Below are positions 13,105 to 15,309 of a DNA stretch of 64,000 nt, piece by piece (the stretch's first letter is position 1; the number at the start of each line of letters is the position of its first letter). The DNA is taken from positions 57,536,001 through 57,600,000 of the forward strand of contig OX597820.1 of NCBI GenBank assembly GCA_951406725.2, in the 5' to 3' direction. Position numbers and translations under genes: made by a program. This stretch comes from Octopus vulgaris (Eukaryota). The notes beneath the pieces are model-generated. The model saw only the letters and a program-made list of their open reading frames with translations, did not search any database and had not been told where the DNA came from.

Positions 13105-13436
13105 TATTATTATTATTATTATTATTATTATTATTATTATTATTATTATTATTATTATTATTATTATTATTATATATATATATATATATATATATATATA
13201 TATATATATAATTAATCAATATAGGGTGGCAAAAAAATTTTGTAGAATTCTTTTGCCACCAGCGGCCTAGTGGGAAAAAAATTAAATAGTCATAAACCAT
13301 TTTTAAGTTCAACATCACAATCAAGGAACGGCCATAATAGGCCATTCACCCACTAGAAATAACAGCCAAAAGCTTTAACCGCAAAATAACGTCAATTCCG
13401 TAAACCAGGAGAAAATTAAAAAACATTTACCCTGTA

Positions 13437-13543
13437 ATTTCTTAGACGATGCACCGTTTCATCTACTGTTTAATGGAAAACTAACCTGATTAAATTAAAT
13501 CAAGCCAATCTACCATAGGCCCTTAGATTCATCAGTAAGAAAT
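13437..13543 (-). ncRNA. Type I hammerhead ribozyme
   Basis: Reverse complement of the 14294-14400 motif. Predicted cleavage between 13445 and 13444. Confidence 0.88.
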
Positions 13544-14293
13544 AGCCAAGCCGGAACAGATATTTTTCACGAGGCAAGTCTGCACCTCGTCAATATCTGA
13601 CCTAAAATTTTCAAATCGTCGCATATCGCGCCAAATTTATCGGCAGCAAATAAATATAAGCCGCCGATTCCATTACGGAATTAACCAGAAAATTCATAAT
13701 TAATCAATATAGGTGGCAAAAAAATTTTGTAGAATTCTTTTGCCACCAGCGGCTAGTGGGAAAAAATTAAATAGTCATAAACCATTTTTAAGTTCAACAT
13801 CACAATCAAGGAACGGCCATAATAGGCCATTCACCCACTAGAAATAACAGCCAAAAGCTTTAACTGCAAAATAACGTCAATTCCGTAAACCATGAGAAAA
13901 TTAAAAAACATTTACCCTGTAATTTTTTTAATTTTCTCCTGGTTTACGGAATTGACGTTATTTTGCGGTTAAAGCTTTTGGCTGTTATTTCTAGTGGGTG
14001 AATGGCCTATTATGGCCGTTCCTTGATTGTGATGTTGAACTTAAAAATGGTTTATGACTATTTAATTTTTTCCCACTAGGCCGCTGGTGGCAAAAGAATT
14101 CTACAAAATTTTTTTGCCACCCTATATTGATTAATTATGAATTTTCTGGTTAATTCCGTAATGGAATCGGCGGCTTATATTTATTTGCTGCCGATAAATT
14201 TGGCGCGAGTGCGACGATTTGAAAATTTTAGGTCAGATATTGACGAGGTAGCAACGAGAATGCCTCGTGAAAAATATCTGTTCCGGCTTGGCT

Positions 14294-14400
14294 ATTTCTT
14301 ACTGATGAATCTAAGGGCCTATGGTAGATTGGCTTGATTTAATTTAATCAGGTTAGTTTTCCATTAAACAGTAGATGAAACGGTGCATCGTCTAAGAAAT
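14294..14400 (+). ncRNA. Type I hammerhead ribozyme
   Basis: Stem I atttctta(14294-14301)/taagaaat(14393-14400), CTGATGA 14302-14308, stem II atcta..tagat with a long inner hairpin, GAAA 14377-14380, quasi-palindromic stem III cggtgcatcg, GTC triplet 14390-14392. Confidence 0.9.
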
Positions 14401-15309
14401 TACAGGGTAAATGTTTTTTAATTTTCTCCTGGTTTACGGAATTGACGTTATTTTGCGGTTAAAGCTTTTGGCTGTTATTTCTAGTGGGTGAATGGCCTAT
14501 TATGGCCGTTCCTTGATTGTGATGTTGATATATATATATATATATATATATATATATATATATATATATATACTTATGCATTGAGTTTTATTTTCCTGGT
14601 TTAATCGTCAAATCTAGACATGCATACACACGCGCGCGAGCACACACACACACACACACGCACACACACGCACACACACTCAAACACACACACACACACA
14701 CACATACATACCCACGTATTTATATAACATTATCAGCATCACAAATTTAATGTATGTGATGTGTGTGTGTGTGTGTGTGTTATTAAATACTACAAAGATG
14801 CACTACTCCTTTAAAGACATCGTGTTCAAAAACAGCCTATTTCAAAGCTAGGTGGCGCAAAATCGCCCCGGAAGTGAATGAGAGCGACAGATATTGAAGT
14901 TTCGCGTTTCTTTCCGCTCTTCTGTAAGTACACACATGCACGTGTGTGGCTGTGTAAACGTAACTAAATGATTGGATAGCTATATGTCCATATATAAATC
15001 TATGTATGTGTGTGTGTGTGTATGTATGTATGTATGTATGTATGTATGTATGTATGTATGTATGTATGTATGTATGTATGTGTGTATGCATGTATGTGTG
15101 TATGTATGTATGTATTATGTATGTATGTATGTATGTATGTATGTATGTATATATGTATGTATGTATGTATGTATATATGTATGTATGTATGTATGTATGT
15201 ATTATGTATGTATGTATGTATGTATGTATGTATGTATGTATGTATGTATGTATGTATGTATTATGTATGTATGTATGTAAGTATGTATGTATATGTATGT
15301 AAGTGTTTA

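Follow-up and report, generated by a model that had tools for sequence, protein, structure and literature searches.

A retrozyme-type repeat family of Octopus vulgaris with a Penelope-like insertion footprint

INTRODUCTION

Non-LTR retrozymes of metazoans, described from coral, mussel, and axolotl (Cervera and de la Pena 2020, PMC7229834), are tandem non-coding units of 150 to 450 nt with a GC content below 50%, one type I hammerhead ribozyme per unit, and no LTR features, and they occur in genomes that contain Penelope-like elements (PLEs). In the accessible text of this literature, the mover of animal retrozymes and the role of the hammerhead in the Penelope cycle are both treated as open questions, and a 2020 review (PMC7761336) holds that animal retrozymes have no conserved motif pointing to a helper. 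A preprint by Li, Clavereau, and Pollet (bioRxiv 10.64898/2026.07.22.740005) describes retrozymes as PLE derivatives; 8 of the 9 predicted frog retrozymes reported there did not cleave. For PLE insertions themselves, an inverted truncated copy and a 30- to 40-bp tail at one end have been described, with a bias toward (TA)n (PMC8557442). In vitro, the tail ends were RT start sites, the PLE protein cut both strands and was modelled as a dimer, and no difference in RT start site was seen between strands (Frangieh et al. 2024, PMC11167929).

The octopus family described here likewise consists of non-coding tandem units with a GC content below 50%, one type I hammerhead per unit, and no LTR features, in a genome that contains PLEs. 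Its unit is longer (490 nt) than those of PMC7229834, and it differs from them in the head-to-head orientation of its arms, in ends that are unequal but fixed, and in its strict restriction to (TA)n targets ("inverted" and "microsatellite" have 0 occurrences in the main text of that paper), in a lowest-energy fold that blocks the ribozyme core, and in being known from DNA alone. Two consecutive units with complete hammerheads, by which the preprint recognizes retrozymes, are present at many octopus loci. Our conclusion of PLE dependence is the same as that of the preprint, but the evidence there was co-occurrence plus similarity to frog pseudo-LTRs, with no mollusc included and 0 occurrences of "tail" in its available text, whereas here it is the insertion footprint; pseudo-LTR similarity was not found among the octopus PLE families examined. 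With PLEs (PMC8557442; PMC11167929), the octopus family shares the inverted 5′-truncated copy, the one-end tail, the (TA)n bias, and a hammerhead followed downstream by two internal RT start sites, which are putative in the octopus unit. It differs from them by the absence of a reading frame, a tail of 105 nt instead of 30 to 40, and a one-long/one-short rule for its ends that was not observed in the reported PLE in vitro work (PMC11167929).

RESULTS

Structure of the locus

The locus was found in a 64-kb stretch of O. vulgaris DNA, referred to below as the window. It is a single insertion of a 490-nt non-coding unit, in two head-to-head arms, inside (TA)n (Table 1). The tandem and inverted arrangement described in the original prediction was recovered by self-BLAST, and (TA)n is present at both flanks as stated there. 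The repeat unit is real as well, but its length had been put at ∼488 nt; the right arm gives 490 nt, and most other copies measure 489 to 493 nt. Even in a doubled unit the longest ATG frame encodes 66 amino acids, in line with the claim that there is no credible open reading frame, and no PLE frame was found within the window. The left arm carries private changes, and its variant hairpin loop was absent from the other loci examined. A direct-repeat scan of the window was dominated by microsatellites. Elsewhere in the window, an abundant SINE-like repeat was noticed at 34215-34764, 38025-38772, 15580-15850, and 11940-12160, twice as tandem arrays (184 and 191 nt), as was a 147-amino-acid open frame that is non-repetitive in composition and may be a host exon, at 61131-61574 (-).

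Table 1 Features of the window locus; monomer position 1 is the base after the predicted cut
Feature	Position	Strand	Details
(TA)n target repeat, left side	13171..13210	no strand	
Left arm	13208..13925	(-)	monomer positions 5-490 then 1-236; 3′ end 13208 is the "long" end (236)
Complete 3′ module	13206..13359	(-)	multibranch domain and terminal hairpin, both end positions inside; 39.3 bits with model from other families
Type I hammerhead, copy 1	13437..13543	(-)	CUGAUGA at 13535; predicted cut after 13445
3′ module, second copy	13696..13844	(-)	34.1 bits
Head-to-head joint of arms	13921..13925		5-nt overlap; arm starts are monomer positions 5 and 18, just inside cut site
Right arm	13921..14528	(+)	monomer positions 18-490 then 1-136; 3′ end 14523-14528 is the "short" end
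17-nt motif directly 5′ of module	13978..13994; second occurrence 14468-14484	(+)	common to other (TA)n-inserted families
3′ module, third copy	13988..14138	(+)	38.5 bits; the 105-nt tail, bounded by the two end positions, lies at 14034-14138
Type I hammerhead, copy 2	14294..14400	(+)	predicted cut after C14392
Copy 2, stem I	14294-14301/14393-14400		
Copy 2, core	14302-14308		
Copy 2, stem II	14309-14376		
Copy 2, GAAA	14377-14380		
Copy 2, stem III	14380-14391		near-palindromic
(AT)n target repeat, right side	14528..14572	no strand	

Hammerhead motif, fold, and conservation

Self-BLAST and a pairing-checked descriptor revealed exactly two long-stem hammerheads in the 64 kb, one complete motif in each arm, as predicted. 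The two are identical across the ribozyme, with 8, 5, and 5 pairs in stems I, II, and III; a third descriptor match at 25065 has stems of just 4, 2, and 4 pairs. The core CUGANGA, GAAA, and NUH, together with three stems of which stem I is open, is that of a type I hammerhead. Of the five pairs counted in stem III, the last two would close a 2-nt loop, leaving 3 or 4 pairs in the monomer. Stem II had been called unusually long, but for this genome its 68 nt are not unusual: other hammerhead-like motifs have 42 to 79 nt, and the PLE 3′ ends of this genome often contain a long stem II. Comparison with the Rfam hammerhead models, the check that had been proposed, yielded 0 matches at the gathering score and no hammerhead among 29 matches at E values up to 10 (the remaining weak matches were generic hairpins), probably because of the 68-nt stem II.

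The lowest-energy fold of the ribozyme is inactive, its core being paired with stem III (-35.5 kcal/mol versus -32.3 for the active monomer fold, a gap of 3.2). Stem III alone is nearly unstable (-0.2), and with a second copy it forms a 12-pair duplex (-17.5) that resembles dimeric hammerheads (PMC4209133). With regard to a possible tertiary contact between loop 1 and loop 2, stems I and II each contain internal loops, the outer helix of stem I differs between subfamilies, and no covariation was found. Folded as a circle, the whole 490-nt unit had a z score of -6.0, and 0 of 60 shuffles were equally stable.

Ten core positions were invariant across 47 to 48 loci, and N7 occurred as all four bases. 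Since only 73 of 484 positions carry a variant common to loci, this invariance is weak evidence for conservation. The cleavage base is C or A across subfamilies. Pair 10.1-11.1 is A-U in most loci, G-U in 4, and A.C in 3, in place of the G10.1-C11.1 pair that has been called highly conserved in hammerheads (PMC4209133), and the fifth stem II pair is A.A in 7 loci. In one subfamily, G-C replaces A-U at a stem II pair and AU replaces GC at the center of stem III, with the palindrome kept; L057 has the unpaired intermediate of a compensatory change. Both compensatory changes lie within one subfamily and thus count as single events, and covariation in the family alignment was found for 1 of 140 pairs.

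Copy number and dispersal

A genome-wide search yielded at least 239 matches (40 scored of 1,014 candidates), the best ten being 100% identical and located on five contigs, in agreement with the young family of the original prediction. Exact end junctions with (TA)n occurred 681 times for the long end and 867 times for the short end genome-wide, compared to 0 for reversed-pattern controls, and an exact pattern for the ribozyme half of one subfamily had 690 genome-wide copies. On contig C1, 20 of 51 long ends adjoin one of 70 short ends, corresponding to about 180 C1 loci and, by rough extrapolation, to ∼2,000 loci in the genome. We examined 61 loci: 20 from the best matches (mostly long arrays), 40 taken from the first 41 C1 matches to the long end, and the window locus. 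Arrays reach about 11 units. Counting both arms, at least 2 complete hammerheads were present in 17/40 loci and none in 14/40. Subfamilies are up to about 10% apart, and the GC content of the unit is 36.5%.

A PLE frame continuous with the element was found in 0 of the 61 loci; where PLE fragments lie nearby (L038, L074, L078, and L088), a stretch of (TA)n intervenes between them and the element. An RT/GIY-YIG open reading frame adjoining all copies, which according to the original prediction would have marked the repeat as a PLE pseudo-LTR, is therefore not a property of this family; nor does the unit itself contain the RT plus GIY-YIG frame of an autonomous EN+ PLE. With its tandem, non-coding type I hammerhead units, dispersed and young, the family agrees with the predicted non-LTR retrozyme, and a retrozyme-type element rather than a PLE pseudo-LTR is supported at the sequence level. 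Its monomer, in contrast to what had been claimed, is not long: 490 nt falls inside the published retrozyme range of 51 to 972 bp (bioRxiv 10.64898/2026.07.22.740005, available text).

Part of the window stretch is contained in 20 of 23 dataset rows, none of which is recorded as RNA. Contigs from 4 runs presumed to be RNA covered 28 to 29 of 29 bins and had the same subfamily variants; assembled contigs show neither transcription nor ends, strand, or circularity, and these were counted neither for nor against expression.

Insertion footprint

Two arms of at least 40 nt were present in 48 of the 61 loci, some of the others keeping a tiny short-end arm, and (TA)n occurred at both sides in 58/61. 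Of the two-armed loci, 46 of 48 combine an arm end at ∼236 with one at ∼131, never the same end twice; L071 and L089 are the two that deviate. All 20 two-armed loci that had not been selected for their ends had one end at 233 to 242 and one at 102 to 136; among the 28 selected by their long end, 26 had the other end at 125 to 136, and none had it at 233 to 242. Two same-strand short-end junctions 1 kb apart (G000:C1:69962326 and 69963322) were noticed as a possible exception to the end rule. The two end positions are 105 nt apart, a PLE-type "tail." Any target site duplication, which in non-LTR retrozymes is longer than 4 bp when present, would be hidden by the (TA)n insertion site. The inverted 5′-truncated copy, the tail at one end, and the microsatellite target of PLE-type insertions are all found here, which strengthened the previously suggested link to mobilization by PLEs. 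The end rule also holds in the five two-armed copies of autonomous PLEs of this genome that we examined (L111, L113, L123, L166/L179, and L165/L180).

Relationship of the two arms and their 5′ ends

The arms within a locus differed by 0.48%, compared to 5.1% between loci, and in all 22 C1 loci whose arms overlap by 100 nt or more, an arm was closer to its own partner than to 90% of foreign arms. In 19 of 48 loci, both arms were fixed for rare alleles; in 2, fixation was confined to a single arm. Both cDNAs therefore derive from one RNA, or at least from one source locus; gene conversion could add to the likeness of the arms. The idea that two different RNAs prime the two arms, which had come from the variant loop in the window, was rejected in view of this allele sharing. 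Of the variants private to a unit, 0/81 were common to the unit of same rank in the other arm, and 6/245 were shared out of register, which leans toward a monomer circle as the putative template; singletons make up 123 of 140 such variants, however, and assembly errors may account for them. L035 and L036 have arrays with 4 to 5 consecutive units free of substitutions. A 4-unit block is duplicated in L031, and arrays therefore also grow after insertion.

Among the C1 arms, 15 of 68 had their 5′ ends at monomer positions 1 to 25 (3.9 expected; P = 1.3e-5, for an interval chosen after inspection of the data), and the other 25-nt bins contained at most 6. In the long-array set, this was the case for 4 of 41 arms (2.2 expected). 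Positions 466 to 490 showed no excess. The excess is compatible with RTs running off a ribozyme-made end or stalling at a ligation joint; A/T runs in the surrounding region favor joints, and A/T microhomology could contribute. We take the pile-up just inside the predicted cut site as a hint of in vivo cleavage. Both arms start within positions 1 to 25 in five loci (window, L065, L070, L075, and L089). Perfectly symmetric joints were seen in L039, L063, and L076, where the two arms share one starting position in the monomer (294, 162, and 387, respectively).

Search for a PLE partner

The partner search began from GIY-YIG and led to two Neptune-like families and to Hydra families. One Neptune-like PLE is very young, with a 781-amino-acid RT-GIY-YIG frame, many copies of 99 to 100% protein identity, and a tail of about 40 nt; its copies L109:1244-6453 and L106-L124 have two frames, the upstream one of about 480 amino acids, and a (TA)n target. 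L109 contains near 6350-6390 what we take to be a possible hammerhead, with U3-A8 replacing C3-G8. The second Neptune-like PLE (L138-L143) is very abundant (38,000 first-look candidates), with frames of more than 1,000 amino acids; one of its copies has, in the (TA)n of its 3′ end, the retrozyme L078. Hydra-clade families (L164-L180, L145, and L159) have RWK, DKT, and CxCX5C motifs, long Asn-rich inserts, a hammerhead with a 58- to 61-nt stem II, and a tail of about 107 to 125 nt, which far exceeds the published 30 to 40 bp; L164-L180 also have a palindromic stem III and a (TA)n target. The L164-L180 copies examined are 92 to 96% alike in protein and hence older than the youngest retrozyme subfamily. 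PLE-type families were also seen nested in each other's (TA)n flanks (L038, L078, L128, L166, L167, and L174).

The Hydra families are alike to the unit in hammerhead, tail, and (TA)n target but have no 3′ sequence similarity to it; none of the 3′ ends of the Neptune-like families examined was similar either. Tail alignments stayed within the range of shuffles in 13 of 14 comparisons (best, 7/500), and a motif likeness to Hydra tails noted by eye failed the shuffle test. In summary, Hydra fits the anatomy of the retrozyme, and Neptune fits its age.

A 3′ module shared with other families

The 17-nt motif of the unit was found again in other short head-to-head (TA)n insertions, the 3′ regions of which fold like unit positions 89 to 236. 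Covariation among these families involved 5 of 30 pairs in 8 sequences, a count that kinship can inflate. A model built from the 8 other-family sequences, without the retrozyme and without most of the 17-nt motif, ranked the three complete modules of the window first (34 to 39 bits; next, 19) and had no match in the own 3′ ends of the Neptune-like and Hydra families examined. Plain alignment without the motif was weaker: 3 to 141 of 400 shuffles reached the score.

A pattern for the module-sharing families had 5,701 matches, including some same-strand runs at a spacing of 584 to 594 nt, which suggest further retrozymes. One such family has the tail sequence upstream of its body, and no PLE frame was found upstream in six longer copies of one. 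The families are probably sister retrozymes. The module was also seen in L035:2035-2516, L082, L098, L120, L150, L167, and L128, and at G000:C1:10836402-10838799. In L035, about 110 nt ahead of the 17-nt motif, there is a hammerhead-like motif in degenerate form, and further hammerhead-like motifs, with a stem II of 42 to 79 nt, were noticed in L051, L053, L065, L116, L117, L125, and L147.

DISCUSSION

We propose, with a probability of roughly 0.78, that the family is a retrotransposon of the non-LTR retrozyme type, non-autonomous and dependent on a borrowed PLE protein. At the level of sequence, this explanation comprises tandem 490-nt units with a hammerhead in each, (TA)n, divergent arms, and one allele type; to these it would add transcription, cutting, circularization, PLE priming, and cDNA joining. 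Arrays would be transcribed and cut by their hammerheads, probably as dimers via the near-palindromic stem III, and most monomers would be circularized by a host ligase. A dimer of the PLE protein would bind the structured 3′ module and cut both (TA)n strands, with one cDNA primed at ∼236 and the other at ∼131 on the same RNA. The RTs would then continue round the circle for 0 to 11 units, or run off the ribozyme-made 5′ end, and the two cDNAs would be joined head-to-head via short microhomology. Counted against this proposal are the inactive lowest-energy fold, the A-U pair at 10.1-11.1, and the fact that no partner PLE was found among the families examined. Further points against it are the two loci that break the end rule, the missing 5′-end excess in the long-array set, the L031 duplication, the in vitro result that start sites did not differ by strand (PMC11167929), and the frog retrozymes that failed to cleave.

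The same PLE-driven insertion might also use linear, partly cleaved multimeric templates and no circle, with unequal crossing-over keeping arrays long. We regard this as unlikely, though as the best of the alternatives. Among arms that reach the cut site, 17% stop there (15/86 arrivals), both arms stop within positions 1 to 25 in the five loci named above, the block duplication in L031 shows growth after insertion, and unprocessed RNA was reported as the main PLE substrate in vitro (PMC11167929); against these stand the lack of in-register sharing of unit-private variants between arms and the substitution-free runs of units in several arrays. Both counterpoints become indecisive if the source loci are very young or if private variants are assembly errors.

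It is distinctly less probable that the hammerhead has lost its cutting activity and is vestigial, and that the element moves on read-through transcripts via its 3′ module only. The subfamilies, despite their divergence, have kept the core fixed while N7 and the cleavage base (C/A) vary, the exchanged pairs of stems II and III preserve pairing and palindrome, and 5′ ends are in excess at the cut site, all of which speaks for a cutting ribozyme. What makes a vestige conceivable is the inactive fold, the A-U pair, the weak statistical support for core conservation, and the report that hammerhead mutants left PLE insertion in vitro unaffected (PMC11167929).

Only a small chance is left for the unit being the pseudo-LTR of an autonomous PLE, the coding copies of which lie outside our sample. 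The order of parts (hammerhead, short end, tail, long end) is as in the PLE 3′ ends of this genome, the loci examined are 61 of ∼2,000, and the queries did not include Naiad, Chlamys, or Poseidon proteins. However, in every long arm examined a unit is preceded by a further unit, and the PLE fragments near four loci are cut off by (TA)n, with none in the window. A DNA-level repeat (satellite or fold-back element) with arms homogenized by gene conversion is the least probable of all: inverted arms are able to convert each other and post-insertion tandem duplication was observed, but the fixed, unequal 3′ ends and scattered 5′ ends, and hence the end rule, contradict it, loci are dispersed, arms with very short overlap also have common alleles, and autonomous PLEs of the genome have the same anatomy.

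The retrozyme class and the PLE hypothesis are already published (PMC7229834; bioRxiv 10.64898/2026.07.22.740005). In the accessible literature on retrozymes or hammerheads in octopus or cephalopods and on non-autonomous Penelope elements with hammerheads, we found no such family described. A 2026 octopus repeat annotation (PMC13282606) mentions neither "hammerhead" nor "ribozyme" in its available text, and neither these words nor "retrozyme" in its supplement. The PLE-type insertion footprint and the 3′ module common to families were not found in print; Dfam, Repbase, the PMC13282606 library, or the supplements of the preprint could list the family under another name.

For the proposed retrozyme-type element, the octopus loci offer a mechanistic footprint instead of co-occurrence. 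The in vitro PLE assay already in use could be run on a small, delimited RNA module, and the predicted start sites are exact. The one-long/one-short rule, which can be counted across many young loci, sets limits on the way in which a PLE dimer contacts its RNA. Developers of RNA-templated insertion tools, too, may take an interest in a compact RNA that steers insertion to (TA)n. Finally, we tentatively suggest, at somewhat less than even odds, a guild of retrozyme families with thousands of loci and one structured 150-nt RNA module in common, onto which a PLE protein dimer would load and which would give it a twin start signal; the two DNA ends would be primed by a single RNA circle, each at a fixed site of its own, and the 5′-end pile-up would be a genomic record of germ line hammerhead cleavage. 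If this is true, the 150-nt module would be the helper-pointing motif that animal retrozymes, according to the review cited above (PMC7761336), lack.
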